Shown: piece after piece, positions 3,672-33,312 of the stretch
Layout of the letters: each line of letters opens with the position of its first letter
Position numbering within the stretch: position 1 is the first letter of the stretch
Source: Kiritimatiellia bacterium
GTDB lineage: Bacteria > Verrucomicrobiota > Kiritimatiellia > RFP12 > UBA1067
Direction of reading: 5' to 3'
DNA length: 56,722 nucleotides
NCBI GenBank assembly: GCA_045598785.1
Contig: JAZLMR010000068.1
Location: 1-56,722 of the forward strand
Translations under genes and position numbers: made by a program
Notes under the pieces: generated by a model
Seen by the model: only the letters and a program-made list of their open reading frames with translations
What the model was told of the DNA's origin: nothing
The model's database searches: none

Positions 3672-3998
3672 GTGCGGATGTCCTTACTTCTTGCTTTTTC
3701 ACTATTACTTTTTACTTCCGCCGCGCGGGCGGCGGTGATTGACGTAACGTCGGGGAACTTCGAGAGCTGCCGTGCGCTCAAGGACGGTAACACCTATCGG
3801 TTCGTCGAGAGTGTCACTTTCGCCGCGCCAGCGACCGAGAGCGCAATGGCGGTGGCGGACGGTGCGACCGTTACGCTGAACATCGCGGCTGGCGTGACCG
3901 TTTCGCTGCGCGGTGGTGACGCAGTTGGCACGACCGGCGCGGGCGCGGGCATCGAGGTTCCTGCGAGCGCGAATTGCTGTGGGGACAGTCCCATCTGA
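3672..3998 (+). CDS. Truncated secreted repeat protein (signal peptide plus the start of a beta-helix/Pmp-like passenger)
   Basis: Signal peptide MSLLLAFSLLLFTSAARA (ATG at 3678), then ...ATVTLNIAAGVTVSLRGGDAVGTTGAGAGIEV, typical of the N-termini of large surface proteins. The frame stops abruptly inside the palindromic element at 3977-3993. Confidence 0.45.
   Translation: MRMSLLLAFSLLLFTSAARAAVIDVTSGNFESCRALKDGNTYRFVESVTFAAPATESAMAVADGATVTLNIAAGVTVSLRGGDAVGTTGAGAGIEVPASANCCGDSPI
3683..3719 (-). repeat. AT-rich purine-run element (minus orientation) related to 35142-35180
   Basis: The reverse complement, GGAAGTAAAAAGTAATAGTGAAAAAGCAAGAAGTAAG, aligns with queA GGAAGAAGTAAAAAGTAAAAGTGAAGAAGTAAGAAGTGG with few mismatches. 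With the purine run at about 3650-3674 it forms an imperfect inverted repeat (AGTGAAAAAG / CTTTTTCACT). Confidence 0.7.
3977..3993. repeat. Palindromic element copy in inverted flank orientation, CTGTGGGGACAGTCCCA
   Basis: The reverse complement, TGGGACTGTCCCCACAG, contains GGGACTGTCCCCA of the core. It lies at the junction between the truncated secreted-protein ORF and unrelated sequence. Confidence 0.7.
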
Positions 3999-6208: not shown

Positions 6209-6229
6209 GTCGGGAAGAGGAGGATACAG

Positions 6230-11838: not shown

Positions 11839-11870
11839 TCGACCTCGGGCAGTTGATTTGCGGAACTCTG

Positions 11871-11879
11871 TGATATAAT
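11871..11879 (+). promoter_or_regulatory. Extended -10 promoter element TGATATAAT, 9 nt upstream of the GH28 start codon
   Basis: TGnTATAAT. There is no SD sequence in the 9-nt gap (aacgaattt) before ATG 11889. Confidence 0.55.
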
Positions 11880-11888
11880 AACGAATTT

Positions 11889-13658
11889 ATGGACAAACGG
11901 TTGACATTGGCTTGGGGATGGGCGCTGGCGGCTTCGTTGGCGTGGGCGATGGAGTATCGGCAGGTGAAGGTCGAAGACGCGCCGTTTGCCATGCCGGCGA
12001 TTCCGGAATGCGTCTTTCCGGCGCGCGACTTTTCCATTGTGGATTTCGGCGCCCGGCCGGGAGTGAAGTGCACCGAGGCCTTGGCCCGGGCGATGGCGGC
12101 TTGCGAGGCGGCCGGCGGCGGGCGGGTGGTGGTGCCGGACGGCTCTTGGATTACCGGCGCCATCCGTTTCCGCTCGAACTGCAACTTGCACCTGGCGGCG
12201 GGCGCAATCATTGAATTTACCGACGATCCCGCCGACTACCCGGTGGTGCATACGACTTGGGAAGGCGTCGAATGCCTGAATCTTTCGCCGCTGGTCTTCG
12301 CCTACGAGGTCGAGAACATCGCGATCACCGGCCAGGGGCTTTTTCGGCCGAAGATGGATCGCTGGCGCTCCTGGTTCACGCGGCCGCCGGCGCATCTTTA
12401 TGCCACCGAATGCCTCTATCACTGGTGCTCGACCAATGCGCCGATGGCCGCCCGCGACGTGACCGCGATCAAGGGTTCCAACGTTCGGCCGCATCTCATT
12501 CAGATCAACCGGGCGAAGAACGTGCTGCTGGACGGCTTCCGCATTAAGGAGTCGCCGTTCTGGATGATTCATCTCTATCATAGCGAAAACTGCATCGTCC
12601 GCAATCTTGACACTTGCGCCCACGGGCACAACAACGACGGCGTCGATGTCGACATGACGAAGAACGTGCTGATTGAAAAGTGCCGTTTCGACCAGGGTGA
12701 CGACGGCATCTGCCTCAAGGCGGGCCGGAACGCCGATGCCTGGCGGCTTAACCGTCCGACGGAGAACGTGGTCGTCCGCGACTGCGACCTGGTGCGCTCC
12801 CATTCGCTCCTGGGAATCGGTTCGGAATTGTCCGGCGGCATCCGCAACGTCTGGATGACGCGGTGCAAGGTGCAGTCTACCGGCGGCGCCGTCCGCATCA
12901 AGACCAACCGCCGCCGCGGCGGTTTTGTCGAGAATATCTACCTTGACCACTGTCAGGCCGGCGACCTCACCTGGGTGTTCGGGCTGGGAACGGACGTGCT
13001 CTTTCAATGGAAGGCGTTTCCCGATTACGAGCTGCGCTATACGCGCATTCGCAACATCAACATCTCCGACTTGACTTGCGACGAGGTGCGGGTGGCCTTT
13101 GACGTGCAGGGCGACCGCCATCTGCCGGTCGAAGGCCTGCATTTCCGCAATATTTCCATCAATCGCGTCGGCAAGGCCTTCAGCGACATCAAGAACTGCT
13201 CGGACATTACCTTTGACAACGTTCGGCTGGCGCCGGCAGATCCGGACTACCGGCCGCCGGAAGTCGAGCTGATGCCGATCGACGATCGGTTTGACAGTCT
13301 TTCGCCGGCCCACGCGGCGGCGGTGAAGTTCCTTAACGATCCGAAGCTCAAGACCTTGGGCGACGGGCGCTATGAGCTCGGCGGCGGGGCGTTTGCGGAA
13401 ATCGGCATGTGGACTTGCCGCAATTTCAACCGCGACGTCGAGTTCAAGGACGAGCCCGACTATGACACTTTCGTCGCTTATCTCGATCCGCTTGAAGGCG
13501 AGCGCTTCTTTGTCGGCAAATACGCCAAGGAAATGAGCGTCTGGGGCGACTATTACATTTTCTTCCCGGCGGGGCTTCGCCGTGCCGAGCAGCTGACTAA
13601 TCGCGATGATTACGAGGCGCGGCGGATTACGGTGAAGGTGCCGGTGGCGAAGAAGTGA
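11889..13658 (+). CDS. Glycoside hydrolase family 28 (polygalacturonase/rhamnogalacturonase-like), secreted
   Basis: GH28 motifs GHNNDGVDVD, QGDDGICLKAG, SLLGIGSE and VRIKTN, plus a signal peptide. Confidence 0.85.
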   Translation: MDKRLTLAWGWALAASLAWAMEYRQVKVEDAPFAMPAIPECVFPARDFSIVDFGARPGVKCTEALARAMAACEAAGGGRVVVPDGSWITGAIRFRSNCNLHLAAGAIIEFTDDPADYPVVHTTWEGVECLNLSPLVFAYEVENIAITGQGLFRPKMDRWRSWFTRPPAHLYATECLYHWCSTNAPMAARDVTAIKGSNVRPHLIQINRAKNVLLDGFRIKESPFWMIHLYHSENCIVRNLDTCAHGHNNDGVDVDMTKNVLIEKCRFDQGDDGICLKAGRNADAWRLNRPTENVVVRDCDLVRSHSLLGIGSELSGGIRNVWMTRCKVQSTGGAVRIKTNRRRGGFVENIYLDHCQAGDLTWVFGLGTDVLFQWKAFPDYELRYTRIRNINISDLTCDEVRVAFDVQGDRHLPVEGLHFRNISINRVGKAFSDIKNCSDITFDNVRLAPADPDYRPPEVELMPIDDRFDSLSPAHAAAVKFLNDPKLKTLGDGRYELGGGAFAEIGMWTCRNFNRDVEFKDEPDYDTFVAYLDPLEGERFFVGKYAKEMSVWGDYYIFFPAGLRRAEQLTNRDDYEARRITVKVPVAKK

Positions 13659-13688
13659 CAGGGCCAAGTGCAAGTGAAAGGAAAGACT

Positions 13689-16628
13689 ATGATCAGGCGA
13701 ATGACATTGTGGGCGGTGGCGCTCGTGGCGACGACGCTGGTGGCGCGCGAACCGAATTACGACGAGTCCAAGATCGCTCCCTACACGCTGGAAGATCCGC
13801 TGACTTTTGTCAATGGGAAGAAGGTGACCAATTGGGACGAGTGGAAGGCGCGGCGGGCGGAAATCGTCCGGATTTTCGAAAAGGAGATGTTCGGGCGCAC
13901 GCCGCCGAAGCCGGAAGCGGTGGTGGCCGAGCTTCTGGAAGAGGGGCCGACGCTCAAGGGCCTGGCCATCCGCCGTCAGTATCGCGTGTGGTACAAGCGC
14001 GACAAGACCGGGCCGCATCTGGACTGGCTGGTCATTCTCCCCAACCGCATCAAGGGCATCGAGCCGAAAGTGGAGAACGGCCGCGTCGTCTGCGAGAACG
14101 AGACCAAGGTGCCGGTCATCCTGTTCCTCAACTACCGCGGCAATCAGCATGTCGTCACCGACCCCGAGGTGTTCAAGTGCACGGGCTGGAGCCGCAACGA
14201 CAAGCCGCATGTGGTCGATCACGTGATTCAGGAGTCCAGCCGCGGCGAGCTGCGTCGGTGCGATTCGACGACGCCGTTTCCGATTGAGACGATTATTGCC
14301 CGCGGCTATGCGGTCATGACCGCCTGCTACTGCGACATTTCGCCCGACGTCGAGGTGCGCAAGGGCGATCCGGAGGAGCTTGCCTACACCGGTGTCTTCG
14401 AGCTGTGGCCGCGCGATCCGAACGCCGACGACAACATTACCGCGATCGGCGCCTGGGCGTGGTCGCTGTCGCGGGGCCTGGATCTTGCCGAGCAGATTCC
14501 CGAGATCGATTCGACCCGGTCGGTCGCCACCGGCTGCTCGCGGCTCGCGAAGACGCCGCTCCTGGCGGCCTCCCGCGACGAGCGTTTTGCGGTTTGCGTC
14601 CCGTGTCAGACCGGCGGCGGCGGCGCGCCGCTCGCCAAGCGCGACTTCGGCGAGAATGTTTCGACCGAGATGCGGGCGTTTCCGCATTGGTATTGCAAGG
14701 CCTATGCCAAATACATTGACAACGAGCAGGCGATGAAGTTCGACCAGCACCTGCTGCTGGCGTCGATCGCCCCGCGCGGGCTGCTGGTGCAGGGCTTCCC
14801 CTCGAATTGGTTCGACACCAAGGGCGAATATCTCGCCTGCGTCGCGGCTTCGCCGGTCTGGGAGCTTCGGGATTCCTTCCGGGGCTTGCCCAAGACGGGC
14901 TTCCCGGCGGAATACTCGACGGCGGCGATCGGCGATCGGCTCGGGTATGTCCGGCGCGGCGGCGAACACGGCATTTCCGGCAGCGACTGGCTGTGGACGA
15001 TGGACTTCGCCGATCAGATCTTCAAGGAGCGGCCGGTGATGAGCATCAAGGGCTTCACGCAGACGGTGAAGATGCTGGAGGGCGAACAGTGGTGGGGCGT
15101 GGCGAATTATTTCGCCAAGGAAATGCCGTTTACCGCCCAAAGCAAGTGCATCATTGACCTGACGGTCAACGGCTACGCCAACCAGTATGCGTCGCTGCTG
15201 ATTTCCGATCGGGGCCGCGAGATCTGGTGCGACCGCCAGTGCCGCTTTGAAATTGCCGATGGCGAAATCAAGGTGATTTCCTCCTCGGGCGCGCCGGTCG
15301 AGGTCGTCGAAGCGGGAAAGAATCTCCGCGAGGCGTTTCTCCATGCGTCGAAGCATCACTTCCCGCCGAGCGGCAAGACGCCCGACCTGGCGTTCATCCG
15401 TTCGCCGCAGTACAACACCTGGATCGAGCTGACCTATAATCAGAACGAGAAGGACATCCTGGCCTATGCGCAGTCGATGCTGGACAACGGGCTGCCGCCC
15501 GGGGTCTTTATGATCGACAACACCTGGCAGCAGAATTACGGCACCTGGGAGTTCGAGTCTTCGCGCTTCAAGGATCCGAAGGGCATGGTCGAAAAGCTCC
15601 ATCAGCAGGGCTTTAAGGTGATGCTCTGGGTGTGCCCGTGGATTTCGATGGATACCGAACCTTACCGGCAGCTTTATACCGGCAAGACCTGGGAAGGCAA
15701 GAAGGTGCCGATCGGCGGCTTCCTCAATCTTGCGCCGGCCGGGCTCGGCGAGCGTGGCGATCCCGCGGCGGTGCAGTGGTGGAACGGCAAGTCGGCCCTG
15801 CTGGACTTCACCCACCCCAATGCCAATCGCTGGTTCACGGAACAGCTCGACCGGTTGGTGAAGGACTATGGCGTCGACGGCTTCAAGCTGGACGGCGGGT
15901 CGCTCCTCTATTACACCCGCGGCTATCATTGCTTCGACAAGTCGGTGCCGAGCGGCGATCAGGCCAACGGCTACCTTAAGTATGCGCTCAAGTATCCGGT
16001 CTGCGAATATCGCCACGCCTGGAAGAACGGCGGGCAGCCGATCGTGATGCGCCTTCACGACAAGAACCACAAGTGGAGCGAAGTCCAGGCGCTCATTCCG
16101 GCGATGATCGCGGGCGGATTGCTCGGCCATTCCTTCATGTGCCCGGACATGGTCGGCGGCGGCAACTGGGTGACTTTCCTGCCGGGGCAGCCGTTTGAAG
16201 AGGAAATGTTCGTCCGCTCGGCGCAGGTGCATGCGCTGTGCGGGCAGATGCAGTTCTCGGCTTCGCCGTGGCGCGTGCTTTCCAAGGCAAACCAGCAGAT
16301 CATCCGCGACCTGGTGAAGATGCGCCAGGAGAAGTTCGCCGAGAAGTTCGTCGCGCTCGCCCGGGAGTGCGGGCATACCGGCGAGCCGATGATCCGCAAC
16401 CTCGAATACATGTTCCCCGGCTGCGGCTACGGTAGCATTCAGGACGAGTTCATGATGGGCGACTTCCTTTTGGTGGCGCCGCAGGTTGAAAAGGGCAAGG
16501 CTACGCGCGAGGTGGTCATTCCGGCCGGCAACTGGAAGGCCGATGACGGTTCGCTCGTCAAGGGACCGTGCAAGCTCGTGGTCAAGACGCCGCTTTCGCG
16601 GTTGCCGTACTTTGAGAAGCAGCCGTGA
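13689..16628 (+). CDS. Fusion protein: carbohydrate esterase family 15 (glucuronoyl esterase-like) + glycoside hydrolase family 31-like TIM barrel
   Basis: The N-terminal half carries the CE15 nucleophile motif TGCSRLAKT and QTGGGGAP. The C-terminal half carries FMIDNTWQ, KVMLWVCPWIS, GVDGFKLDGG and SFMCPDMVGGG, typical of GH31. It is one uninterrupted frame. The start was chosen at the ATG after the SD-like AAAGGAAAG. Confidence 0.72.
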   Translation: MIRRMTLWAVALVATTLVAREPNYDESKIAPYTLEDPLTFVNGKKVTNWDEWKARRAEIVRIFEKEMFGRTPPKPEAVVAELLEEGPTLKGLAIRRQYRVWYKRDKTGPHLDWLVILPNRIKGIEPKVENGRVVCENETKVPVILFLNYRGNQHVVTDPEVFKCTGWSRNDKPHVVDHVIQESSRGELRRCDSTTPFPIETIIARGYAVMTACYCDISPDVEVRKGDPEELAYTGVFELWPRDPNADDNITAIGAWAWSLSRGLDLAEQIPEIDSTRSVATGCSRLAKTPLLAASRDERFAVCVPCQTGGGGAPLAKRDFGENVSTEMRAFPHWYCKAYAKYIDNEQAMKFDQHLLLASIAPRGLLVQGFPSNWFDTKGEYLACVAASPVWELRDSFRGLPKTGFPAEYSTAAIGDRLGYVRRGGEHGISGSDWLWTMDFADQIFKERPVMSIKGFTQTVKMLEGEQWWGVANYFAKEMPFTAQSKCIIDLTVNGYANQYASLLISDRGREIWCDRQCRFEIADGEIKVISSSGAPVEVVEAGKNLREAFLHASKHHFPPSGKTPDLAFIRSPQYNTWIELTYNQNEKDILAYAQSMLDNGLPPGVFMIDNTWQQNYGTWEFESSRFKDPKGMVEKLHQQGFKVMLWVCPWISMDTEPYRQLYTGKTWEGKKVPIGGFLNLAPAGLGERGDPAAVQWWNGKSALLDFTHPNANRWFTEQLDRLVKDYGVDGFKLDGGSLLYYTRGYHCFDKSVPSGDQANGYLKYALKYPVCEYRHAWKNGGQPIVMRLHDKNHKWSEVQALIPAMIAGGLLGHSFMCPDMVGGGNWVTFLPGQPFEEEMFVRSAQVHALCGQMQFSASPWRVLSKANQQIIRDLVKMRQEKFAEKFVALARECGHTGEPMIRNLEYMFPGCGYGSIQDEFMMGDFLLVAPQVEKGKATREVVIPAGNWKADDGSLVKGPCKLVVKTPLSRLPYFEKQP

Positions 16629-18061
16629 GCCGCGTTCGCATTTCCATTCTGACCGGATTGACGCTGGCGCTCTCCCTAGCAGCGCCGGCGCTAGAGCTGG
16701 ACGCACCTTTCGGCCGCTTTGCGATTGCCGAACCTGCCATTCCCGATCGGGAATTCGTCATCACCGAGTTCGGGGCGAGGCCGGATGGTTCCGATTCGTC
16801 CGCGGCGTTTGCCGCCGCCTTTGCGGCGGCGTCGGCCGCCGGCGGCGGGCGGGTGCTGGTGCCGGGCGGCGTCTGGACCGTCGGGGCGATTCACCTTAAG
16901 TCCAATTGCGAATTGCACCTTGACGAAGGCGCGGTCCTGGACTTTCTCGACGATCCGGCCAAGTATCCGGTCGTTGACACGACTTGGGAGGGGCTTGAGT
17001 GCCGCAACTATTCGCCGCTCGTCTACGCCTACGGCTGCACCAACCTTGCCATTGTCGGCAAGGGGCAGCTCCGGCCGCGGATGGCCTTTTGGCGCACTTG
17101 GTTCGGTCGGCCCGAGTCGCATATCGCCGCGACTGGCGAACTTTATCACTGGGGGGCGACGAACGCGACGCTGGCGGCGCGCGACCTGACGAGGCTGCCG
17201 GCTGCGCACATGCGGCCGCACCTCCTGCAGCTCAACCGCTGCGCCCGGATCCGGCTGGAGGGCTTCCGCATCCGCGAGTCGCCGTTTTGGACGGTGCATC
17301 TCTATCATTCTCAGGACGTGGTCGTCCGCGCGCTCGACATCTACGCCCACGGGCACAACAACGACGGCATCGACGTCGACATGACCCAGAACGTGCTGAT
17401 CGAGAACTGCCGTTTCGATCAGGGCGACGACGGCGTCTGTCTCAAGGCGGGCCGGAACGCCGATGCCTGGCGGCTTAACCGGCCGACGGCAAACGTCGTT
17501 GTCCGCAACTGCGATTATGTTCACGCCGGTTCGCTTTTGGGAATCGGCTCGGAACTCTCCGGCGGCGTCCGCAACGTGTGGTTGCACGACTGTCGCATTT
17601 CCTCGCCGAACAACTGCGTGCGCATCAAGACGAATCGCCGGCGCGGCGGTTTCGTGGAAAACGTCTGGGTGGAGAACTGCGAGATCGGCGTCATTCGCGA
17701 GGCGCTCTTCAACATCAAGACCAAATACTATTATCAGTATGCGGTCTTTCCGGACTACGAGTTCCGCTGGACCCCCATCCGCAACATTCATCTTCGCAAC
17801 CTGAAGGCCCAATGCGCCGACTGGATGTTTGACATTGCCGCTGATGAAAAGTGCCCGGCGGAAGACCTCTTTTTCGAGCGGCTGTCGATCGGCGCGGTGC
17901 GATTGGGGATGTCGAAGATCGAAAATGCGCGCGGCGTCACGATGAATCAGGTGACTTTAGGCAAAGACCGACCGGTGCCGCCGGTAGAACTGAAGGACTG
18001 GATTCCCACGGGGGCGCCGGATCAGGCCGACGCCGTGCCGGACTCGGAGCATAAACTATGA
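16625..18061 (+). CDS. Glycoside hydrolase family 28, paralog of 11889-13658
   Basis: GHNNDGIDVD, QGDDGVCLKAG, SLLGIGSE and VRIKTN, plus a signal peptide. Overlaps the previous stop codon. Confidence 0.85.
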   Translation: MSRVRISILTGLTLALSLAAPALELDAPFGRFAIAEPAIPDREFVITEFGARPDGSDSSAAFAAAFAAASAAGGGRVLVPGGVWTVGAIHLKSNCELHLDEGAVLDFLDDPAKYPVVDTTWEGLECRNYSPLVYAYGCTNLAIVGKGQLRPRMAFWRTWFGRPESHIAATGELYHWGATNATLAARDLTRLPAAHMRPHLLQLNRCARIRLEGFRIRESPFWTVHLYHSQDVVVRALDIYAHGHNNDGIDVDMTQNVLIENCRFDQGDDGVCLKAGRNADAWRLNRPTANVVVRNCDYVHAGSLLGIGSELSGGVRNVWLHDCRISSPNNCVRIKTNRRRGGFVENVWVENCEIGVIREALFNIKTKYYYQYAVFPDYEFRWTPIRNIHLRNLKAQCADWMFDIAADEKCPAEDLFFERLSIGAVRLGMSKIENARGVTMNQVTLGKDRPVPPVELKDWIPTGAPDQADAVPDSEHKL

Positions 18062-24124: not shown

Positions 24125-24942
24125 TCGTCGACGTCCATTCTCATGACTTCGCCCGTTCGATTGCCGTGCGGGCGATGTCGGGAATGTGTCGAATGACCGA
24201 GGGCGTGCTGTGGTCGACTGGCGACGGCACGCTCGCCAATCATCTGGATCAGATCGAACGCGCCGGCGTTGACTGCGCCGTCACCTGCCCGATCGCCACC
24301 AAACCCGGGCACTGGCGAATCATCTTCGACCGGGCCCGCCGCATCCTTCGCGGCGAATGCGGCGACCGGGCCCGTGCGCGGATCGTGCCGTTCGCCTCGG
24401 TGCATCCGGACGATCCCGAACTGGAGGCGCACCTCCGGGTCATTGCCGAGGGCGGCATCCGCGGGGTCAAGTTCCATCCGTATTATCAGGACTTCGCCTT
24501 GACGGAAGCGCGTTCGCGGCGGATGTTCGACATCGTTGCCGATCTCGGGCTGGTGGTGCAGTGCCATGCCGGCGGCGACATCTGCTGGCGGGAGTCGACC
24601 GGGCGTTGCGGTCCGCGGGAGATTGAGTCGTTGGTCAAGCGATGCCGGCGGCTTAAGTTCATCGCCGCGCATTTGGGCGGGTGCTTCCGGCAGCCGGCGC
24701 ACGAAGCCGACCGGCTGATGGACTGCGGTGTCTACACGGACACGTCGGTTCTGCATGCGCGGTGGCACTACGACGAGGAGATGCGGCTCTTGAGGTCCTG
24801 GCCGCGGGAATTGATCATGTTCGGCACCGATTTTCCCTGGACGCATTATCCCGAGGCGATTCGCTGGGTCAAGTCCGTGCGCGAGCAGCGGGATTGGGAG
24901 GATCTGTTCGGAGGCAATGCATGTCGGTTGCTGGGCCTTTGA
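24121..24942 (+). CDS. Metal-dependent amidohydrolase (amidohydrolase_2/TIM-barrel hydrolase family)
   Basis: N-terminal IVDVHSHD metal-binding motif, FHPYYQDF, AAHLGG. The GTG start overlaps the htpG stop codon. Confidence 0.65.
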   Translation: MIVDVHSHDFARSIAVRAMSGMCRMTEGVLWSTGDGTLANHLDQIERAGVDCAVTCPIATKPGHWRIIFDRARRILRGECGDRARARIVPFASVHPDDPELEAHLRVIAEGGIRGVKFHPYYQDFALTEARSRRMFDIVADLGLVVQCHAGGDICWRESTGRCGPREIESLVKRCRRLKFIAAHLGGCFRQPAHEADRLMDCGVYTDTSVLHARWHYDEEMRLLRSWPRELIMFGTDFPWTHYPEAIRWVKSVREQRDWEDLFGGNACRLLGL

Positions 24943-26054
24943 CCAAGGACGCGATTCGCGATCGAATGCGCACATTGCGGCGGGCGGTGAAGCCGGCTCG
25001 GCGCGAGCTGGTGTCGCGGCAATTGTGCGAGCGGCTGTTGCTGAAGACTCTTGGCGCGAAACGGGTGTGCTGCTATCGCGCGCTTAAGACCGAAATCGAC
25101 TTGGCGGAATTCATCGCCCGCTCGCCGGCGGAAATCGTCTTTCCCGAAAAGGTCGGCGATGGCTATCAGGTCGAAAGCCCGGAGACGGTCGACGTCTGGA
25201 TCTGCCCGGGGCTGGCGTTCACTCGTGCCGGCGATCGCGTGGGGTTTGGCGGTGGCTGGTACGACCGCTTTCTGGCGGCGGCTAAGCCGACTGCCCGCAA
25301 GTTGGGCGTTGCGTATCGCTTTCAGCTCGTGGACGAGTTGCCGTGCGCGGCGCACGACATACGGCTGGACGAGATGGTCGTGGAAGGGGTTTCGCTGGAC
25401 TATGAGCGCGGTGAGGGGCCGCTGGTGATGGGCATTGACGAGGCGGGGCGCGGTCCGCTCGTCGGCGGCGTTTATGCGGCGGCGGTATCGGTGCCGCTTG
25501 ATCGCGCCGCCGAACTGGCCGCGAACGAATGGCGGGCGATCAACGATTCTAAGCAGCTGTCGGAGAAGAAGCGCTTTCAGCTCGCGGAAGTCATCAAAGC
25601 TACGGCCGGATGCACTTGGGCGATCGCTTCGGCGAGCCCGCAGGAAATTGACGCGCTCAACATCCTCAAGGCGACGCATTTGGCGATGCGACGGGCGGCG
25701 GAGTCGCTGGCGGGCCAGTTGGCGGCGGGGACTGTCCCCATGGCGGCGGGGACTGTCCCCAAGATTCTAGTGGATGGGCTGGCGGTGCCGACTTTGCCGT
25801 ATCCGGCGAAAAATGTGATCAAGGGCGATGCGCAGTCGCTGTTCATCGCGGCCGCGTCCATCTTGGCGAAAACGGCCCGTGACGAAGATTGCTTTCGTTT
25901 GGAACGCGAATATCCGGGTTATGGCTTTGCCAAGCATAAGGGCTATCCGACGCCCGAGCATCTGGCCGCCTTGGCCAAATTGGGGCCTTGTCCCGAGCAT
26001 CGGCGGAGTTTTGGCCCGGTAAGTCAGCCGGAATTCAAATGGACAGGAGCCTAG
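24921..26054 (+). CDS. rnhB: Fusion protein: 5-formyltetrahydrofolate cyclo-ligase (N-terminal ~165 aa) + ribonuclease HII
   Basis: 5-FCL motif GLAFTRAGDRVGFGGGWYDRFL. The same frame then continues into MGIDEAGRGPLVGGV, DSKQLS, KGDA...AAASILAK and HRRSFGPV of RNase HII. There is no stop codon between the modules. Confidence 0.8.
   Translation: MSVAGPLTKDAIRDRMRTLRRAVKPARRELVSRQLCERLLLKTLGAKRVCCYRALKTEIDLAEFIARSPAEIVFPEKVGDGYQVESPETVDVWICPGLAFTRAGDRVGFGGGWYDRFLAAAKPTARKLGVAYRFQLVDELPCAAHDIRLDEMVVEGVSLDYERGEGPLVMGIDEAGRGPLVGGVYAAAVSVPLDRAAELAANEWRAINDSKQLSEKKRFQLAEVIKATAGCTWAIASASPQEIDALNILKATHLAMRRAAESLAGQLAAGTVPMAAGTVPKILVDGLAVPTLPYPAKNVIKGDAQSLFIAAASILAKTARDEDCFRLEREYPGYGFAKHKGYPTPEHLAALAKLGPCPEHRRSFGPVSQPEFKWTGA
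25720..25761 (+). repeat. Perfect 21-bp tandem duplication (TGGCGGCGGGGACTGTCCCCA x2) containing two palindromic cores, inside rnhB
   Basis: Read directly. It encodes AAGTVPM AAGTVPK in a loop that is about 12-14 aa shorter in E. coli RNase HII (between the ...AVAGL helix and the VLIDG strand). Confidence 0.95.
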
Positions 26055-26060
26055 ACGGAG

Positions 26061-26786
26061 ATGGCCATAAACTGTCAAGTCATGGGAATTGTCAATGTCA
26101 CGCCAGATTCTTTTTCGGATGGCGGCAAGTATTTCCGGCCGGAAGAGGCGGTGCGGCGGGCCCATAACCTGGCGAAAGCGGGGGCGGATATCATCGACTT
26201 GGGCGCGGAATCAACGCGGCCAGGGGCCACTCCGATCACTTGGGAGGAGGAGTGGGCGCGGCTGGAGCCGGTTTTGCGGGGACTGTCCCCATCGGTTTTG
26301 CGGGGACTGTCCCCAAGGTTGAGCGTTGACACCTACCATCCCGAAACGGCCGAGCGCGCCTTGGCGATGGGCGTCAAGATGATCAATTGCGTTTATGCGG
26401 AGTCAGTTCCGCAAATTGCGGAATTGTGCGGAAAATTTAAGGTAGACGCCGTTTTTCCTTCAACTTACGCGGATTTTGCGGGGACTGTCCCCACGATTTA
26501 CTTAGATCCGATGATTGGCTTTGGCACCACTCGCGAGGAGGATTTGGCGCGGCTTAAGTCAATTCCTGAGCTTGCCAAGCGAGGTCCGGTATTGGTAGGT
26601 GCGAGTCGCAAGCGTATCGTGCAGAAGCTTTCGGGAGTCAAGGCGACGGGCAAACTGCTGGGCGGCAATCTTGCGCTGGTCGTTTGGGCCGCCTTGCACG
26701 GAGCATCCATCGTTCGGGTTCACGATGTCGCCGAGACCGTCCAGGCGCTGAAAGTGGCATCGGTCTTGGAATCGGAGGGCGCTTAA
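26061..26786 (+). CDS. folP: Dihydropteroate synthase (short form, 241 aa)
   Basis: GIVNVTPDSFSDGG, DLGAESTRPG, SVDT, DPMIGFG, GASRKR, VRVHD. It carries three copies of the palindromic element. Confidence 0.85.
   Translation: MAINCQVMGIVNVTPDSFSDGGKYFRPEEAVRRAHNLAKAGADIIDLGAESTRPGATPITWEEEWARLEPVLRGLSPSVLRGLSPRLSVDTYHPETAERALAMGVKMINCVYAESVPQIAELCGKFKVDAVFPSTYADFAGTVPTIYLDPMIGFGTTREEDLARLKSIPELAKRGPVLVGASRKRIVQKLSGVKATGKLLGGNLALVVWAALHGASIVRVHDVAETVQALKVASVLESEGA
26271..26318 (+). repeat. 24-bp tandem duplication (GTTTTGCGGGGACTGTCCCCAWSG x2) with two palindromic cores, inside folP
   Basis: 22/24 nt are identical between the units. It encodes VLRGLSPS VLRGLSPR just upstream of the conserved SVDT strand. 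Confidence 0.95.
26474..26493 (+). repeat. Fifth in-frame copy, TTTTGCGGGGACTGTCCCCA, inside folP, read in a different frame
   Basis: It encodes FAGTVPT. The reading frame relative to the element is the same as in rnhB but differs from the two upstream folP copies (RGLSP). Confidence 0.95.
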
Positions 26787-27254
26787 ATGGACTTTGTGGC
26801 GTTAGACTTTGAAACTACTGGCTATGAGCTCGGCGGCGTCAACGAGCCGTGGCAGCTGGGTCTCGCCGTCGTACGCGATGACCGGATCGTCGAAACGCGC
26901 GAATGGTTCTTTACGACTTCGGTGCCGATGCCGGGGCTCAAGGCGGCGGTGCCGTTTATGACGCAGTGGGAGGAGTTTTTCCCGTATTTGGCCGGTCAGC
27001 GTCTCGTGGCGCATAATCTTGCCTGCGAGAAGACGATTCTTACGCGAGTGGCGCCGCTTACCCGGTGGGGGCCATGGGTGGACACCCTGAAACTGGCCAA
27101 GGCGCGCTACCCGAGGCTGCCCAGTTACAAGTTAGGGGATCTTTGCGAGACTTTCGGCTGCGTCCCGCAGTTAGACGGGCGCACCTGGCATGATGCGCTT
27201 TATGATGCCGTCGCCTGTGCCGAACTGGCGATGCGGCTTTCAATTGGACTATGA
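26787..27254 (+). CDS. DEDDh 3'-5' exonuclease domain protein (DnaQ/epsilon-like)
   Basis: ALDFETTG (ExoI), AHNLACEK (ExoII-like), HDALYDAVACAEL (ExoIII, H-x4-D). Confidence 0.7.
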   Translation: MDFVALDFETTGYELGGVNEPWQLGLAVVRDDRIVETREWFFTTSVPMPGLKAAVPFMTQWEEFFPYLAGQRLVAHNLACEKTILTRVAPLTRWGPWVDTLKLAKARYPRLPSYKLGDLCETFGCVPQLDGRTWHDALYDAVACAELAMRLSIGL

Positions 27255-28348
27255 AGCGTCAACTGGAATTGTTTTGGGAGCTCTTTAAGATTTCGCTGCT
27301 GGTAATCGGCGGCGGCTATGCGATCATCGCGGCGGCGGAGGCGACCTTTTCCCGCAAGGGCTGGACGGAGGACGGCGAGCTCGTCGAACGGCTGCCGGTT
27401 TTTCAGATGATTCCCGGTTTGATTGCCGCGCATACCGCCGTCTATGTCGGCAACAAGGTCGCGGGTTTTCGGGGCGCCGTCATTGGGCTTACGGCCATCG
27501 CCTTGCCGTCGGTGGTCATCTTTACGCTGGTGTCCGTTTTCTACCGGCAGCTGCCGCTGATCAACGAATGGGTGACAGCCGCGTTTGTCGGCTTGCGTGC
27601 CTCGATGACCGGCATCATTGCCGCCACGATCGTCCGCAGCTGGCAGAAAGCCGAGAAGGACTGCTTCTTTTTCGGTTTGCTGACGGTGGGCCTGGCGGCC
27701 GTTGGCGTTTTCGAAGTGTCGATTCCGCTCGTGTTGGCAGGATGCATGGGCCTGGGGCTCATGCGGGAATTTGGCGGCGGTCGCGATCAGGCCGGGACGC
27801 GGCGATTTAATGCCAGCTGGTTGCCGCTGGTGCTCTTTCTCAAGTACGGGGCGTTGGGCTTTGGCGGCGGCTTCGTGCTGGTGCCGATGTATTTGCAGGA
27901 TTTCGTCGGGCCGACGGCGGCCTATTTGCAGCTGGAGGAGACGGAGTTTGCCAATGTGATGGCGCTTTCGCAGATGACGCCGGGGCCGGTCGGCATCAAT
28001 TGCGCGACTTTTTTCGGCTATAATCTGGCTGGCTGTCCAGGGGCGCTCGTGGCTTCGCTCGCGCTTTTGCTGCCGGGGGCGGTGCTGGCGATGCTGGCGT
28101 TTCGTTCGCTGGCGCGATTCCAAGACAGTCGGGTGGTGAAAGGCCTCTTCGCCGGCATCCGTCCCGCCTCGATTGCGCTGATGTCGGTGGCGCTGGTGGC
28201 CTTCGCCCGTTGCTCGTTTTCCGAATGGCTGGCCTGGCCGCTGGCGGTCGCGACCGGCTATTTGGCCTATTCGCGGCGGCTCGGGGTGGTGACGATAATC
28301 CTCTTGTCGGCGCTGGTGGCGGTGCTCGGCCACCTCGTTTTTCCTTGA
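27251..28348 (+). CDS. chrA: Chromate transporter family protein (duplicated CHR domains)
   Basis: Two CHR halves: LLVIGGGYAII... and LKYGALGFGGGFVLVPM...QMTPGPVGIN. Polytopic hydrophobic profile. Confidence 0.8.
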   Translation: MKRQLELFWELFKISLLVIGGGYAIIAAAEATFSRKGWTEDGELVERLPVFQMIPGLIAAHTAVYVGNKVAGFRGAVIGLTAIALPSVVIFTLVSVFYRQLPLINEWVTAAFVGLRASMTGIIAATIVRSWQKAEKDCFFFGLLTVGLAAVGVFEVSIPLVLAGCMGLGLMREFGGGRDQAGTRRFNASWLPLVLFLKYGALGFGGGFVLVPMYLQDFVGPTAAYLQLEETEFANVMALSQMTPGPVGINCATFFGYNLAGCPGALVASLALLLPGAVLAMLAFRSLARFQDSRVVKGLFAGIRPASIALMSVALVAFARCSFSEWLAWPLAVATGYLAYSRRLGVVTIILLSALVAVLGHLVFP

Positions 28349-28416: not shown

Positions 28417-31400
28417 ATGAAGCAACTGATGACGGCAGTGGCGGGTATGGTGTTGGCGCTTGGTGCCTTTTCGGCGTTTGCCGGGGAGCCTGGTCCGCGT
28501 CTTGTGCCGGACTACGACCGCAACGGGGTGATCGACGAGGCCGATTGTATACGGGCTGCCGCGAACGAGCCGTTCACCATCTGGCTCAATGACGACGATG
28601 ATGCCGCAGGCGCGGAAGTGGACGAAGGCAAGGGAGATGTCAACACCGACCTGCATGACGTTCCCGGAGGGAATGATGAGAAGGACTGCGAGGACGACAA
28701 GGTCAACGGACGCTGCGACCTCCTTGATTTCTTCCCCGTGCTCGTGGATGTGACTGGTGTGGACGATTGGGCGAATTACACCTGGAAGCTGAGTTCGGAG
28801 TCCGTTAACGTCGTATTCACCAGGTTGAATCCGAATTTTGCGGGCGACTTTCACACGAAGACCGTTCAGGGCTGGGATGTCGAGTCGCCGCTTTATCAGG
28901 CAGCGGTCTCGAAGCTTGCGAATGGTGATGTCGTACTGCCAGATGGTTTTTTCACATGCGAGAACCACTATGGCAGGGGAGTTCTTTTGGTCGAAGGCGC
29001 CGCGTTTGCGAACGCCGGCGGCATCACGCTTCGCGGCGAGAAGGAGTCCGGCGACCACGTCGAGGTGACGCTGGACCTTCGTGTCAAGAATGTGGAGGAC
29101 ATGTACGGGTGGATGAATTTGAGGGATCAGGGATCAGAAGGGGATCGGTTAGCGCCACGACGCGAGGACGCGTCGGGTACGATGTTGGACAACCGGCACT
29201 TTGTGCTTGTTCACGGTTACAACACGAACCACGAGGAGGCGAGGGGCAACGCCGCGGAGTTCTACAAGAAACTCTGGCAGTCCGGCTCGGACGCGATGTT
29301 CACCGCGGTCGAGTGGAACGGCAACCAGTCGCAGATTAAGTTCGATGAACTTGGCGTCAACTTCACGCCGAACTACTTTGTGAACGTCGCGAACGCCTTG
29401 GCGGCGGCGAAGCCGTTCGCGGAAGCGTGCAAACGGCTGTCGGGCGAGAAGATCCTCGTCGGGCACTCCCTCGGCAACGTGCTGATTTCGTCCGCCATCA
29501 AGGATCATGGCCTCGACTACACGAAGTTCGTAATGCTCAACGCGGAGATCGCTGGGAAGGATTTTGCTGCGGACGGGCGCTTCGCCAAGCTGCCGCGGAC
29601 GATCAACTGCTATTCGCCCTCCGATTCGTTTTTGGAGGAATCCGAATTTGATGTCGAGCATTGCGACGACAGCCGTGAGTTTCTCGCCGCTTTTTGTCAA
29701 GAAGCCGGATTTTGGTCGCTGAACGCGAAGATCAAGACGAGCGGGAAGGCGGTGGGCTGGGTCAATGAGTTCATCATCAACCGCCTTGAGCTGGCCGAGG
29801 CAGAAGCGATTACGCCCGAACAACTCGCGTACGCCGGCGTGATCGAGATGCCCGCTGCGGGCGCGAATCCGGTCGCGACGCTGGAGAACGTGAATATGGA
29901 GGACTTCATTGGCGAGAATTGGCCGGTTGTCGAGGAGGGAACGGGGAATGGAGAACAGGGAATAGCGGATCGGGAGAAGGAGTGGCAGCACTCGACTTTT
30001 AGGGAGGTCGCGTTCTACCACACCTCGAAGTTTTACGCTTCGCTGGCCGCGGTCGGCAAGCCGCGCGTCATCATCGACACGGACCTCGGCTCAAGCATAG
30101 ACGACCTCTTCACGATTGATCTTGCGGCGCGGATGCACAAGGCGGGCAAGCTCGACCTGATGGCGGTGATGATGGACCGTCCTGACGGGAGCAATGCATC
30201 CGACGATCCGCACGGGAGGGGCGAGTTCCTGAAGTTCGCCGACCGCTACCTCGCTTCGCTTGGACTTGGAGACCTGCCGATCGGGGTGTCGACGCCACTG
30301 ACAGAAGATCGCCTGCCACAGCATGTGTTCAATCCCTATTGGACGCTCATCTACTCGAACAACCTGACGAGTGTCGGTCTGATGCTGCCGACGAATCGCA
30401 CGGACGAGCAGATTGGCGCCCTTACGAACGCGGTCGTTCTCTACCGGCGGCTCCTCGAGGACGCGCAGCCTAAGTCGGTCGTCATCTGCTCGCTCGGCTT
30501 CCTCAACAACCTGAAGGCGTTGATGGAGTCGGGCCTGAATTACGGGGACGATGGCATTCAGTCCACGGGCAAGGAACTCATCGCGGCGAAGGTGAAGGAG
30601 TTGCGCATCATGGCCGGATGCTTCGATCCGTCCACCGCGCCGGACGGCAAGGATGGCGCCGAATATAACGCGGCAGGTGATCCTGCGGGAACGAAGAAGG
30701 TCTTCGAGGAATGGCCGACGCCGGTTGTCGTCAGCACATGGGAGGTGGGACTGAATCTGTGGTACGATCCGAAGGACGTCCTGGCAGACTTCCCGCCCGG
30801 CACGCTAGATCCGGTTGTTCGCGCCGTCTACACGTATTGGCCTGATCGGGCGGCGGACGGCATCAACCGTCTCTGGGACGTGATGACGGTGCTGCCGCTT
30901 TTTGAGGGCGAGGCGCTGGCGCCGTTGTCGGAGATGGGCGGAATTTCGGTGGATGAGAAGGGCGTGACGACATTCACGCCCGATCCGTCCAGCAACCGCT
31001 GCTACCAGGTCGCGTCGAGCATGGACGCGACGGCGGTGATGGAGCGGATTCGGACGCTCTGCCGGACGGGCAATCCGTCGGCAGACACGGTGGTGTACGG
31101 GACGATCCGCACCGCCGAGACGGGGAATCCGGTCGCCGAGGCCATCGCCGTCAAGGACGGCAGGTACGTCTACGTCGGCGACGAGGCCGGTGCGGCGGCG
31201 TTCATTGAGGACGGCGTCACCAAGGTCGTCGACCACCGCGGCAAGGGTATGGTGATGCCCGGTTGCACCGACGGACATTCGCACTACACGATGCTTTTCG
31301 GTCTCGTCCACATGAAGGGTGGCGTCAAGTTCGAGTACACAGACGACAAGGCGATGGTCCTGCAAAAACTGAAGGCGGCTTCGCAGGCGGCGAAAGATGC

Positions 31401-33312
31401 TGGGAAGCAGACCCTCTTTTCCATTGGTTGGAACTACTACACCTTCCGGATGGGCGAAGGACTGACCTTGGAGGAGCTGGACGCGGCTACGCTCGGGGTG
31501 TCTGCGGTTCTCTTCGATTCTAACGGTCACAGCGCTTACTGCAATACGGAATGTCTGAAGCGCTGCGGCATCATCGACGGCGCGGGAAACGTGCTGATCA
31601 CGAAGATTGACGGCGGTCTTCTGGAACTGGACGGCAACGGATACCCCACCGGATTCGTGCAAGAGCGCGTCTCGGGGTATCTGACGCGTATGGGTGGAAT
31701 CATCGCGGACGAGAACATCGATGACAAGGTGGCGGAATCCGTCGTGCGTGAGTCCCAGGAGCTTTTGCTGTCCACGGGTTATACTATCGCGCTGGAAGGA
31801 TGGAGCAACCAGTTGCATCCAAGCAAGTTCTATGAAGCCGCGCATCGGTTGGACACCAATGGGGAGTTTAAGATCGTATTCCCCATGACCTACGAAGTGG
31901 AGCCGTGGCAGACGAACATGACCAGCGAGATCGACCATCTCGCCTCGCTTAAGGAGACGTACGGGACGCGACACGTGCTGCCGAGCTATCTGAAGATCTT
32001 TATGGACGGCTGCGTGGAAACCAAGACCGGCGCGATGGTTGATCCATACCAGGACACGGATCACACCGTTTACAAGAGTTTCTGGGCCACGAACCGCCTC
32101 GCGGACATCACCAGGGCGTGCAACGCCAAGGGACTGACCGTACACACCCACACCATGGGCGATGCCGCCATCCGGGATGTGACTGACGCCTATATCCAGG
32201 GCGGCGACGGCACGCATCGCAATTGCCTGGTGCATCTCCGCAACGTGCGTCCGGAAGATTTCCAGCGTTTCGCCGAGAACAACATCGCCTGCACCGCCGG
32301 TATGACCTGGCATGTGATCAACGGGGGAGGGTCTGATGAACATATGGTGGGTTTCCTGGATGAGAAATATATCAAGCACGCCTACCCGATGAAGTCCTTC
32401 TTCGACGCCGGTGTCAAGGTCTCCAGTCATACGGACTTCCCGGCAAACGGCGGCTGTCCGCAGGATCCGTTCGGGATCATGCAAGTCGCCGTCACCGGAT
32501 TGATTCCAAACCCTCCGGATGGCATGACGCCGTTCGACACGGACGAGCTGATCACGCGCGAGCAGGCGTTCCAGGCGCTGACGCTGAACGGAGCGTGGCA
32601 GATGGGCCTCGAAAACGAGCGCGGCAGCATCAAGGTCGGCAAGTGGGCGGACTTCGTGCTCGCCGACCAGGACGTGTTCGAATGCGAGACGTCCGACATC
32701 GGCAAGACCAAGGTCGTCTCCACCTGGTTTGAGGGGGAGAAGGTCTTTGAGGCGTCTGAGTCGGTGTCGGTCAAGCCGGGTGAGCAGATTGTTCGCGACA
32801 CGGCCGAGGAGGCGTCGAACGTCATGAAGCGGGCCGTGTTCACCCCGAGCGCAAAGGTCGCGGAGGAGTTGGGTGGCGAAGGGTCGACGGTGTTGCAAAC
32901 ATATTGCAATATGTTCACGCTGGACGTCGTGCCGACCTCGGACGGCAAATGGGCGGTTGCGGCGTTTCTCTTGCCGCCGGACTGGACGAACGTCGTCAAG
33001 TCGGCTCAGGCGGCGACGTTGCAGATTCCGGTGGCGGAGCTTGCGGCGTATCCGTATGGCGAACCGCTGAAAAACGTGCCGCTCACGAACTGCGTGCCGG
33101 GCTTCTACTATTCGCTTTATGACGGGACGGCCGTGACGAACCTCAAGGCGGATCTCAACTCGGACAACTGCAATCTTCTCTGCGGTCCGGGTGCGACGGT
33201 GACGATCCCCGTGGTGCCGCATAACCCTGCGTCGGGCTTCTACTCCATCGGGGTGCTTGAGGCCCCGGTAGTCGTCCCCGGCAAAACCGAAACCGCCACA
33301 ATGGCGGAGTAG
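28417..33312 (+). CDS. 1631-aa secreted multi-enzyme fusion. Approximate modules: signal peptide (aa 1-23); Ca-binding PAD_M-like domain (aa 30-240); DUF900/lipase-like alpha/beta hydrolase (aa 259-420); nucleoside hydrolase (IUNH)-like domain (aa 549-880); amidohydrolase_3 (YtcJ-like) (aa 890-1444); unknown C-terminal ~185 aa
   Basis: Signal peptide MKQLMTAVAGMVLALGAFSAFA. WLNDDDD...DCEDDKVNGRCDLLDFFPV resembles the PAD4 middle-domain stretch VNCDRD...DCEDDEVLDSEDLQDM. FVLVHGYNTNHEEA plus VGHSLGN give a serine hydrolase nucleophile elbow. VIIDTDLGSSIDD is an IUNH-type Asp cluster with a 2-residue longer spacer. MPGCTDGHSHY...AGMTWH...SSHTDFP...VVSTWFEG is amidohydrolase_3. By eye, the third codon positions are less GC-rich than in the neighbouring genes. 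Confidence 0.75.
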   Translation: MKQLMTAVAGMVLALGAFSAFAGEPGPRLVPDYDRNGVIDEADCIRAAANEPFTIWLNDDDDAAGAEVDEGKGDVNTDLHDVPGGNDEKDCEDDKVNGRCDLLDFFPVLVDVTGVDDWANYTWKLSSESVNVVFTRLNPNFAGDFHTKTVQGWDVESPLYQAAVSKLANGDVVLPDGFFTCENHYGRGVLLVEGAAFANAGGITLRGEKESGDHVEVTLDLRVKNVEDMYGWMNLRDQGSEGDRLAPRREDASGTMLDNRHFVLVHGYNTNHEEARGNAAEFYKKLWQSGSDAMFTAVEWNGNQSQIKFDELGVNFTPNYFVNVANALAAAKPFAEACKRLSGEKILVGHSLGNVLISSAIKDHGLDYTKFVMLNAEIAGKDFAADGRFAKLPRTINCYSPSDSFLEESEFDVEHCDDSREFLAAFCQEAGFWSLNAKIKTSGKAVGWVNEFIINRLELAEAEAITPEQLAYAGVIEMPAAGANPVATLENVNMEDFIGENWPVVEEGTGNGEQGIADREKEWQHSTFREVAFYHTSKFYASLAAVGKPRVIIDTDLGSSIDDLFTIDLAARMHKAGKLDLMAVMMDRPDGSNASDDPHGRGEFLKFADRYLASLGLGDLPIGVSTPLTEDRLPQHVFNPYWTLIYSNNLTSVGLMLPTNRTDEQIGALTNAVVLYRRLLEDAQPKSVVICSLGFLNNLKALMESGLNYGDDGIQSTGKELIAAKVKELRIMAGCFDPSTAPDGKDGAEYNAAGDPAGTKKVFEEWPTPVVVSTWEVGLNLWYDPKDVLADFPPGTLDPVVRAVYTYWPDRAADGINRLWDVMTVLPLFEGEALAPLSEMGGISVDEKGVTTFTPDPSSNRCYQVASSMDATAVMERIRTLCRTGNPSADTVVYGTIRTAETGNPVAEAIAVKDGRYVYVGDEAGAAAFIEDGVTKVVDHRGKGMVMPGCTDGHSHYTMLFGLVHMKGGVKFEYTDDKAMVLQKLKAASQAAKDAGKQTLFSIGWNYYTFRMGEGLTLEELDAATLGVSAVLFDSNGHSAYCNTECLKRCGIIDGAGNVLITKIDGGLLELDGNGYPTGFVQERVSGYLTRMGGIIADENIDDKVAESVVRESQELLLSTGYTIALEGWSNQLHPSKFYEAAHRLDTNGEFKIVFPMTYEVEPWQTNMTSEIDHLASLKETYGTRHVLPSYLKIFMDGCVETKTGAMVDPYQDTDHTVYKSFWATNRLADITRACNAKGLTVHTHTMGDAAIRDVTDAYIQGGDGTHRNCLVHLRNVRPEDFQRFAENNIACTAGMTWHVINGGGSDEHMVGFLDEKYIKHAYPMKSFFDAGVKVSSHTDFPANGGCPQDPFGIMQVAVTGLIPNPPDGMTPFDTDELITREQAFQALTLNGAWQMGLENERGSIKVGKWADFVLADQDVFECETSDIGKTKVVSTWFEGEKVFEASESVSVKPGEQIVRDTAEEASNVMKRAVFTPSAKVAEELGGEGSTVLQTYCNMFTLDVVPTSDGKWAVAAFLLPPDWTNVVKSAQAATLQIPVAELAAYPYGEPLKNVPLTNCVPGFYYSLYDGTAVTNLKADLNSDNCNLLCGPGATVTIPVVPHNPASGFYSIGVLEAPVVVPGKTETATMAE

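Follow-up and report, generated by a model that had tools for sequence, protein, structure and literature searches.

A short palindromic DNA repeat within the coding sequences of folP and rnhB in Kiritimatiellia

The rnhB-folP locus and its repeats

We analyzed a stretch of 56,722 nucleotides from a Kiritimatiellia bacterium (assembly GCA_045598785.1, contig JAZLMR010000068.1; hereafter the window), in which two neighboring genes on the + strand carry a short palindromic repeat in frame. The upstream gene (24921..26054, +) encodes a 377-aa protein in which 5-formyltetrahydrofolate cyclo-ligase (PF01812) is fused to RNase HII (PF01351), with no stop between the two parts and within an open reading frame (ORF) at 24681..26054; the RNase HII part is referred to here as rnhB. 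The downstream gene, folP (26061..26786, +), encodes a short dihydropteroate synthase (DHPS; Pterin_bind) of 241 aa. An initial reading made from the letters alone (the sequence-only reading) had reported one 16-mer five times in 774 bp, and exact matching bore this out: GCGGGGACTGTCCCCA has five exact + strand copies across that span, starting at 25725, 25746, 26276, 26300, and 26478. With two mismatches or fewer allowed, chance predicts 0.05 matches, and the observed count was reached in 0 of 100 shuffles. The window holds no further perfect copies, and the weaker matches (at 2145, 3981, 33198, and 41815) do not exceed the chance number. One of them, GGGGACAGTCCCA at 3981..3993 (+, with the core in the other strand sense), differs from the core by one mismatch in the last codons of ORF 3672-3998; it is possibly a decayed copy and may be a chance match.

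All five copies contain the core GGGGACTGTCCCC. In rnhB, it forms a doublet (25720..25761, +) of two identical 21-nt units, TGGCGGC-GGGGACTGTCCCC-A, with cores at 25727-25739 and 25748-25760 and the translation AAGTVP-MAAGTVP. Tandem Repeats Finder returned the same interval as 2.0 copies of the 21-nt TGGCGGCGGGGACTGTCCCCA at 100% identity, in agreement with the tandem pair proposed there earlier. A second doublet occupies loop 1 of folP (26269..26316, +), where 24-nt units CGGTTTTGC-GGGGACTGTCCCC-AT/AA with cores at 26278-26290 and 26302-26314 encode VLRGLSP-SVLRGLSP. Here, Tandem Repeats Finder found 2.0 copies of the 24-nt CGGTTTTGCGGGGACTGTCCCCAT at 26269-26315, again at 100% identity; the tandem pair first placed at 26271-26318 is therefore real, but that register contains one mismatch (CAT vs CAA). 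The remaining copy stands alone in loop 2 of folP (26472..26493, +) as ATTTTGC-GGGGACTGTCCCC-A, with the same 5′ flank as the loop-1 copies, a core at 26480-26492, and the translation DFAGTVP. The 20-mer TTTTGCGGGGACTGTCCCCA is common to all three folP copies. Both folP positions are class-wide sites, loop 1 preceding the SVDTY strand and loop 2 preceding the IYLDP strand. The translations confirm that two reading frames are used (AAGTVPMAAGTVPK in the rnhB ORF; VLRGLSPSVLRGLSPR and FAGTVPT in folP), and the periods in coding DNA are multiples of three, as had been pointed out for the unit lengths.

We considered whether these copies could be a sequencing or assembly artefact at short tandem repeats, the window being a single metagenomic contig. 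However, independent assemblies from different samples and assemblers carry the same copies at orthologous sites (loci L001/L002, L003/L004, L005, L089, L205, and L206). The copy patterns of L001 and L002 are identical, as are those of L003 and L004; L005, the closest relative, has the same sites as the window; and the reading frames remain intact. Because independently assembled orthologous loci share their copy patterns, we regard the chance of such an error as negligible.

The core is 13 nt long, GGGGA-[C/G]TG-TCCCC, with a 5-bp G/C stem and a 3-nt loop that holds the variable base (C or G, position 6). Each unit adds a short polar 5′ flank, (T)TGC in the window lineage, and a 3′ A(CA). These flanks are shared among copies within one genome, with the consensus TTTTGC-core-A in the window and L005 and TCTGC-core-ACAT in L001; forms in which the flank is followed by the core and then by its own complement also occur (e.g., CCCTTGC-core-GCAAGGG). 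A single copy is predicted to fold weakly (−7.9 kcal/mol as RNA, −4.1 as DNA). Because each copy is self-complementary, neighboring copies can pair, copy 1 against copy 2, into one hairpin with a 12-bp stem, at about −26 kcal/mol as RNA and −13.5 to −13.8 as DNA (−26.1 and −13.8 for the rnhB doublet). Spacers within doublets measure 8-11 nt, and most pairs are direct. The sequence-only reading had taken the 16-mer as the hairpin unit; its hairpin potential stands, but the predicted folds suggest that the functional unit is better described as the doublet folding into a single 12-bp stem. In the window, the copies do not resemble intrinsic terminators, as an A rather than a U-tract follows them and the one weak match is owed to the TTTT flank of the next copy.

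FolP and RnhB loops across the class

FolP homologues put the source of the window in Kiritimatiellia, and FolP orthologues throughout this class carry the core GGGGA-[C/G]TG-TCCCC in matching surface loops. We aligned 32 orthologues at 64-72% identity and one at 90% and found that length variation was concentrated in two loops, which are filled by variable numbers of GLSP, GTVP, GSVP, GQSP, GDCP, GVSP, and GHSP. These peptides are translations of GGGGACTGTCCCC and of its one-base variant GGGGAGTGTCCCC in three frames and from both strands; across frames and orientations, the readings of the core include GLSP, GTVP, GDCP, GQSP, GDSP, and GHSP. In a set of 120 FolP proteins, the commonest architecture has four copies in two doublets. 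The first doublet, RGLSP near residue 72 and G[ST]VP near 79, precedes the ISVDTY strand, and the second, G[ST]VP near both 134 and 141, precedes the IYLDP strand. Individual proteins have 0-7 copies, and a single array can hold as many as four 21-nt units; the 28 proteins with none belong mostly to one clade.

We then read the folP DNA of seven further lineages (L001, L003, L005, L089, L205, L206, and L207). The loop peptides are encoded by the palindrome, in either orientation, in all seven; the sequence-only reading had allowed for orthologues that spell such peptides with non-palindromic codons, and here the palindrome itself does the spelling. Its expectation of a family beyond this locus also held, in these orthologues and genome-wide in the metagenome-assembled genome (MAG) RUG14528 described below. 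The five insertions that it had counted are real copies, but the folP sites are ancient class-wide positions rather than fresh insertions in this genome. As a negative control, 80 folP loci from other phyla (737 kb) contained zero copies of the motif. These loci came from a metagenome scan with the FolP alignment, whose back-translated patterns are universal DHPS motifs, so that only generic DHPS genes (32-43% identity) were recovered.

The rnhB-folP pair is syntenic in relatives, where rnhB is a stand-alone gene and the genes upstream of it vary (HPPK, YggS-like, PNP_UDP, and queuosine synthesis). Kiritimatiellia FolP is shortened to 234-277 aa and, aligned to Thermus DHPS (2dqw), is missing about 37 canonical residues between the strand that leads into the loop and the DPxxGFG strand. 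In an AlphaFold model of FolP (mean pLDDT 88), loop 1 sits at the end of helix 61-80, ahead of strand 86-90, and loop 2 joins strand 129-133 to strand 146-149. Each is an alpha-to-beta or beta-to-beta connection ahead of a barrel strand, and from the model we infer a location on the side of the TIM barrel away from the catalytic loops. Relative to 2dqw, loop 1 is longer by 5 residues and the loop-2 region is shorter by ∼37. As the loop-2 segment AGTVPTIYLDP aligns with SAGVPQVVLDP of the Thermus enzyme, a native AGVP (GCG GGG GTC CCC) could have served as the proto-site there.

Copy number changes between close relatives. At 89% amino-acid identity, L005 carries two tandem 24-nt units in loop 2, against a single copy in the window. 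In loop 1, the second copy of L005 is degenerate in both core and flank, whereas that of the window equals the first copy, flank included. Since the two differ in both loops, units are duplicated, lost, and homogenized on short time scales, and from this comparison the recent events in the window appear to be tandem duplication or homogenization of 21/24-nt units. Other lineages differ further: L205 has seven perfect copies, among them three in frame 0 (GDSP) and a doublet that occupies a third folP loop, and in L206 EGTVP stands in place of the consensus AEPVP without any change in length. Constraint on the copies acts across a whole lineage and is not permanent. The four folP copies of the P0046 lineage all bear point changes (6/52 nt), at about background (15% for the gene), and the copies decay while relatives keep theirs: all four are essentially perfect in P0022, the sister of P0046, and in the more distant P0076. 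Comparing P0046 (L651 4769-5482) with P0022 (L652), core position A5 accounts for three of the four changes, with a different new base every time; the pattern may simply mirror the sole protein-tolerant codon, x of G-x-V-P.

The rnhB doublet sits in a loop between THLAMRRA and LVDG that is hypervariable in length (18-41 residues) and sequence among 120 RnhB orthologues. Five of the 120 contain the motif, always as a doublet, in three non-sister lineages and in differing frames and orientations. The window has GTVP...GTVP with a 21-nt period; P0122/L205 has GDSP...GDCP, an inverted pair in frame 0 with a 24-nt period; and P0161, P0185, and P0214/L206 have GTVP...GTVP with a 24-nt period. A tree built without the loop placed these three lineages apart, and in L207, which is sister to L205 and 89% identical, the loop DNA is unrelated. 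The doublet therefore entered the rnhB loop at least three times, or turnover there is very fast. Although the window's rnhB had been credited with ∼14 extra amino acids, its loop is only 3-6 residues longer than those of close relatives, and the loop is hypervariable in all orthologues. We sought a clean pair of empty and filled sites and target-site duplications in this loop and obtained none, as it is too variable even between sisters of 89% identity. In L207, the rnhB-folP pair is flanked (1-7000 and 11478-13800) by genes of defence and toxin-antitoxin type (Abi_2, AbiEii, MazE/PIN, RhuM, and YhcG).

The element is kept at the level of DNA and not of protein. In a comparison of seven lineages with 63-79% FolP amino-acid identity, four-fold degenerate third positions were identical at 83% of sites in motif codons (106/127) and at 40% in the rest of folP (486/1230), so it is the DNA that is conserved. 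Moreover, the probability that GTVP is written GGG ACT GTC CCC is 0.0017 under this genome's codon usage. Both results support the earlier proposal that the nucleotide sequence rather than the peptide is propagated. The GGGGA/TCCCC stem shows no covariation, although a synonymous compensatory pair is available (GGG to GGC with GTC to GTG, both preferred codons). We weighed selection on the peptide instead, by which FolP and RnhB would need loops of the GTVP/GLSP type, the palindromic codons would be incidental, and tandem copies would arise by slippage. Consistent with it, G-x-V-P ahead of the ISVDT/IYLDP strands is widely retained despite DNA decay (GAVP, GPVP, and GSLP in P0046, P0020, and P0053), AGVP stands at the equivalent place in Thermus DHPS, and EGSVP is conserved in orthologues of a GH2 gene discussed below. 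However, a single DNA word yields three unrelated peptides in three frames in addition to reverse-strand versions, its synonymous sites and non-preferred codons behave as just described, and the rnhB loop shows zero peptide conservation. Peptide selection is thus very improbable; as a full explanation it is contradicted, and it could persist only as a partial anchor at folP sites B-D.

Distribution beyond rnhB-folP

Six lineages together have 28 perfect copies, every one of them within rnhB or folP coding sequence (8.7 kb). Their 131.8 kb of flanking DNA has none, so that the DNA read gives no sign of a dispersed genome-wide family in these lineages. The rumen MAG RUG14528, placed in Kiritimatiellae by its GH2 homologues, differs. 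A cross-genome scan with the 16-mer, for which counts refer to the matches listed, gave at least 15 copies in seven 8-kb loci of this genome, spread across unrelated genes with the consensus cTTGC-GGGGAGTGTCCCC-ACAg. Coding copies lie in a GH2 gene and a protein kinase gene. Intergenic copies directly follow stop codons; one is a long hairpin of the flank-core-complementary-flank form followed by a T-run. The copy at L113 4582 fits the intrinsic-terminator pattern. In the GH2 gene, the canonical core and flank encode the conserved ELxGSVP. Because orthologues have this peptide and there is no indel, that copy was written by substitution or conversion and not by insertion; the original description of the repeats as inserted elements therefore fails for some copies elsewhere, which arose without a change in length. 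A search of the surroundings of the RUG14528 repeats brought up no transposase. The Ser/Thr kinase gene with its in-frame doublet (L099 789-3076) is split into overlapping ORFs 789-1475 and 1418-3076, through either a frameshift or an assembly error.

Among the matches listed, core doublets or arrays also appear in Actinomycetes, Thermoleophilia, Conexibacter, gamma-proteobacterial and Planctomycetota MAGs, and some isolates, where they occupy short gaps between convergent ORFs, the classical position of repetitive extragenic palindromic (REP) sequences or terminators. We tentatively regard these clusters as independent families drawn from the small space of G/C-rich 13-mers. In viral contigs, each of three composition-matched control palindromes matched at least 120 stretches vs 83 for the target, so the core word is not generally enriched; a universal element or recognition site was considered and, on this count, not adopted.

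Several of these clusters have features of their own. Doublets or arrays of up to eight core copies between convergent ORFs (L049 4405-4705, L061 4808-4955, L018 2251-2346, and also L051, L086, L097, and L101) come from a gamma-proteobacterial MAG, Solirubrobacteraceae, Conexibacter, and several Actinomycetes MAGs, and the composite GACC-core-GGTTGAT-core-GCTTCTC recurs in several Actinomycetes MAGs. In CAZHCY01 (labelled Desulfovibrionales; L007, L012, L020, L045, and L096), a dispersed repeat of ∼60 nt, CTCTTTCTTTGCGGTGTATATCGC-core-AAGCCGGGCAACCCCCTGAATGGT, looks like a different, longer family. The IMG/VR contig 3300032053_000406 (L239 and L270; 28 kb, classed viral, 64% G+C) holds six core copies, some of them as TCC-core-AAAACCGAT.

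Known repeat families and competing explanations

The sequence was not found in a bacterial context in the literature, nor are such repeats described in the Kiritimatiellia papers that were found. Rfam returned no hit at E≤1 in 24500-27500 and nothing overlapping the motif in 19 other loci. Both results agree with the initial statement that no described family with this sequence was known. That statement had been coupled with a resemblance to the Rickettsia palindromic elements (RPEs), reportedly described by Ogata et al. in 2000 and mentioned in PMC1779305. RPEs are ∼100-150 bp long and occur as single insertions over many genes, specifically in Rickettsia. The likeness holds for a palindromic repeat that is in frame in housekeeping genes, at the protein surface, and propagated as DNA; it is an analogy only, as RPEs are five times longer, and the present repeat has 21-24-nt units with a 13-nt core, forms doublets and arrays in one main gene, and sometimes leaves length unchanged. 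HIP1 of cyanobacteria and the DNA uptake sequences of Neisseriaceae and Pasteurellaceae are spread over whole genomes at a density of roughly one per kb. They too are short words in coding DNA, in every frame and at orthologous positions, with lineage dialects and possible birth by substitution. In contrast, our element has 0 copies in the 131.8 kb outside rnhB-folP, and only here are there tandem 21/24-nt units. Miniature inverted-repeat transposable elements have terminal inverted repeats and a target-site duplication and measure 50-500 bp; here, the copies lack a target-site duplication, the flank that repeats belongs to the tandem unit itself, and some copies are length-neutral. The two arrays of the window do resemble slippage-generated variable-number tandem repeats in being head-to-tail copies at one site, but slippage leaves the other frames, orientations, loops, and genes and the frozen class-wide synonymous sites unexplained. 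loxP/FRT-like 13-8-13 sites, CRISPR, terminators, uptake sequences, restriction sites, and G-quadruplexes were rejected on architecture or density.

The anatomy is closest to that of REPs and REPINs. REPs are short imperfect palindromes with distinct 5′ and 3′ flanks and can take flank-core-complementary-flank forms; in Pseudomonas fluorescens SBW25, the GI REP core is GGGGGCTTGCCCCC, and the REPIN doublet element measures 89 bp (PMC3337134). The Kiritimatiellia repeat shares a short G/C-rich palindromic core with distinct flanks, doublets that form one hairpin, flank-core-complementary-flank variants, long persistence by vertical descent, and, in RUG14528, copies at gene 3′ ends. It departs from REPs in other respects. 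REPs are mainly extragenic and dispersed, with tens to hundreds of copies per genome, whereas here the copies are in frame in coding DNA, intergenic ones are seen only in RUG14528, and, in the loci read, those of most lineages are confined to rnhB-folP. Most doublets here are direct and not inverted, with spacers of 8-11 nt. The flank is TTGC/CTGC or not conserved, unlike the 5′ GT[AG]G tetranucleotide foot of canonical REPs (PMC6006769), and the genes called in the loci read include no REP-associated tyrosine transposase (RAYT; HUH Y1), a gene that REPs usually flank. During replication, template switching is especially frequent at inverted repeats that can form hairpins (PMC7202029). Such quasipalindrome switching, together with slipped strands, offers a ready mechanism for duplication, deletion, and correction of copies; it is, however, a mutational process and not an element family, and leaves the class-wide invariant stem unexplained.

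We conclude that the window contains a resident, class-wide, doublet-forming folP repeat that was recently duplicated there and spilled into the adjacent rnhB loop. Tentatively, we favor a self-propagating, REP-like hairpin repeat that lives inside coding DNA and is filtered by the reading frame. The data show DNA-level conservation, copy-number change between close relatives, independent appearances in rnhB, the hairpin potential of doublets, and the locus restriction. In favor of this reading, besides the first four of these, are the REP-like anatomy and the fact that the copies are dispensable, being absent from 28 of 120 FolP proteins and decayed in the P0046 lineage. Its long-term home would be the two FolP surface loops in Kiritimatiellia, with copies made and lost at the DNA level. 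Units of 21/24 nt would be gained, lost, and homogenized by slipped-strand mispairing or template switching between mutually complementary copies, and short-patch copying would occasionally reach a nearby tolerant loop, such as that of the window's rnhB, with or without a change in length. Selection on the host protein would act as a filter, leaving survivors in surface loops, with multiple-of-three periods and tolerable peptides (GTVP, GSVP, GLSP, GDCP, and similar), and no benefit to the host would be needed. The invariant stem and the lineage-wide decay suggest a putative sequence-specific partner. Several points weigh against self-propagation. A repeat of this kind should disperse, which 28 copies in 8.7 kb and 0 in 131.8 kb do not indicate; the four-site folP arrangement, with fixed frames and positions, is stable in most orthologues and resembles site-by-site conservation rather than turnover; and the stem shows no covariation at all, even though conversion among copies would not on its own hold back sequence drift. 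The loci read contain neither a transposase nor any other candidate for a partner, and the copying mechanism is one that we infer and did not observe. Confinement to one locus and the frozen, non-covarying stem are left unexplained.

These last features would fit a host-selected cis-element in a folate-gene cluster, with the palindromes acting as protein recognition sites in DNA or RNA, or as functional mRNA hairpins, under purifying selection. Effects on transcription pausing, mRNA stability or processing, or folP regulation are possible, and tandem gain and loss would be a side effect of hairpin instability. In addition to the locus confinement, the architecture stable across most of the 120 orthologues, and the invariant stem expected for sequence-specific recognition, all four sites relax together in the P0046 lineage, as if a partner had been lost, and folate genes flank rnhB (MTHFS in the window, HPPK and FolB in L206). 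However, 28 of 120 FolP orthologues are copy-free; the copies vary freely in number, spacing, frame, and orientation; those in rnhB are sporadic; in RUG14528 the element extends to unrelated genes and to intergenic 3′ ends; Rfam has no match; the window copies lack a U-tract terminator context, one weak match aside; and no candidate binding protein is known. On balance, we hold a cis-element to be a strong rival, though somewhat less likely than not. Decidedly unlikely is a true non-autonomous transposable element, a REPIN-type doublet moved by an HUH (RAYT/IS200-like) or other transposase encoded elsewhere, for which folP and rnhB would be tolerated landing sites. The order of 5′ flank, palindrome, and 3′ flank, the doublets, and the flank-core-complementary-flank forms are as in REPINs (PMC3337134), and REP insertions within coding genes are on record for RAYT subclass 2.4 (PMC6006769). 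The genome-wide expansion in RUG14528, the independent arrival of doublets in the rnhB loop of three lineages, and a decay that fits enzyme loss all point the same way. Against this, no transposase was present in ∼200 kb of Kiritimatiellia loci read, the flank differs from the GT[AG]G foot (PMC6006769), length-neutral copies are unexpected for insertion, six lineages have no copies beyond rnhB-folP, and spacers of 8-11 nt compare with an 89-bp REPIN doublet element (PMC3337134).

It is also conceivable, though unlikely, that the palindromes are recognition sites of a class-conserved, sequence-specific partner, either a domesticated HUH-type enzyme or a DNA/RNA-binding regulator. If so, folP, an essential gene, would be home to a replicator of ancient origin passed on by vertical descent, or to a new kind of intragenic element that controls folate synthesis, and loss of the partner would account for the lineages in which all copies decay together. 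Short palindromic repeats are usually treated as extragenic; here, one is found in frame, in all three frames, in an essential enzyme gene, class-wide, and with frozen synonymous sites. Such DNA-level persistence of a repeat inside essential genes is an unusual and undescribed mode. The locus offers a compact natural system in which to study how repeat DNA and protein loops coevolve, how hairpin repeats are copied and corrected, and whether a sequence-specific partner maintains them. In practical terms, variable copy number alters the lengths of FolP and RnhB and can mislead gene callers, orthologue alignments, and the assembly of Kiritimatiellia MAGs, and the signature peptides GTVP, GSVP, GLSP, and GDCP flag the element in protein data.

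The window contains other, longer repeats. Segments 280-779, 692-779, and 4075-4270 are 78-81% identical in DNA to 31081-31380, 32659-32746, and 31541-31736, as paralogous copies; they connect genes at the start of the window with the C-terminal amidohydrolase part of a 1631-aa ORF at 28417-33312 (IU_nuc_hydro and Amidohydro_3). A further pair, 12595-12963 and 17322-17690, offset by 4727 bp and 74-84% identical, probably represents neighboring paralogous genes.

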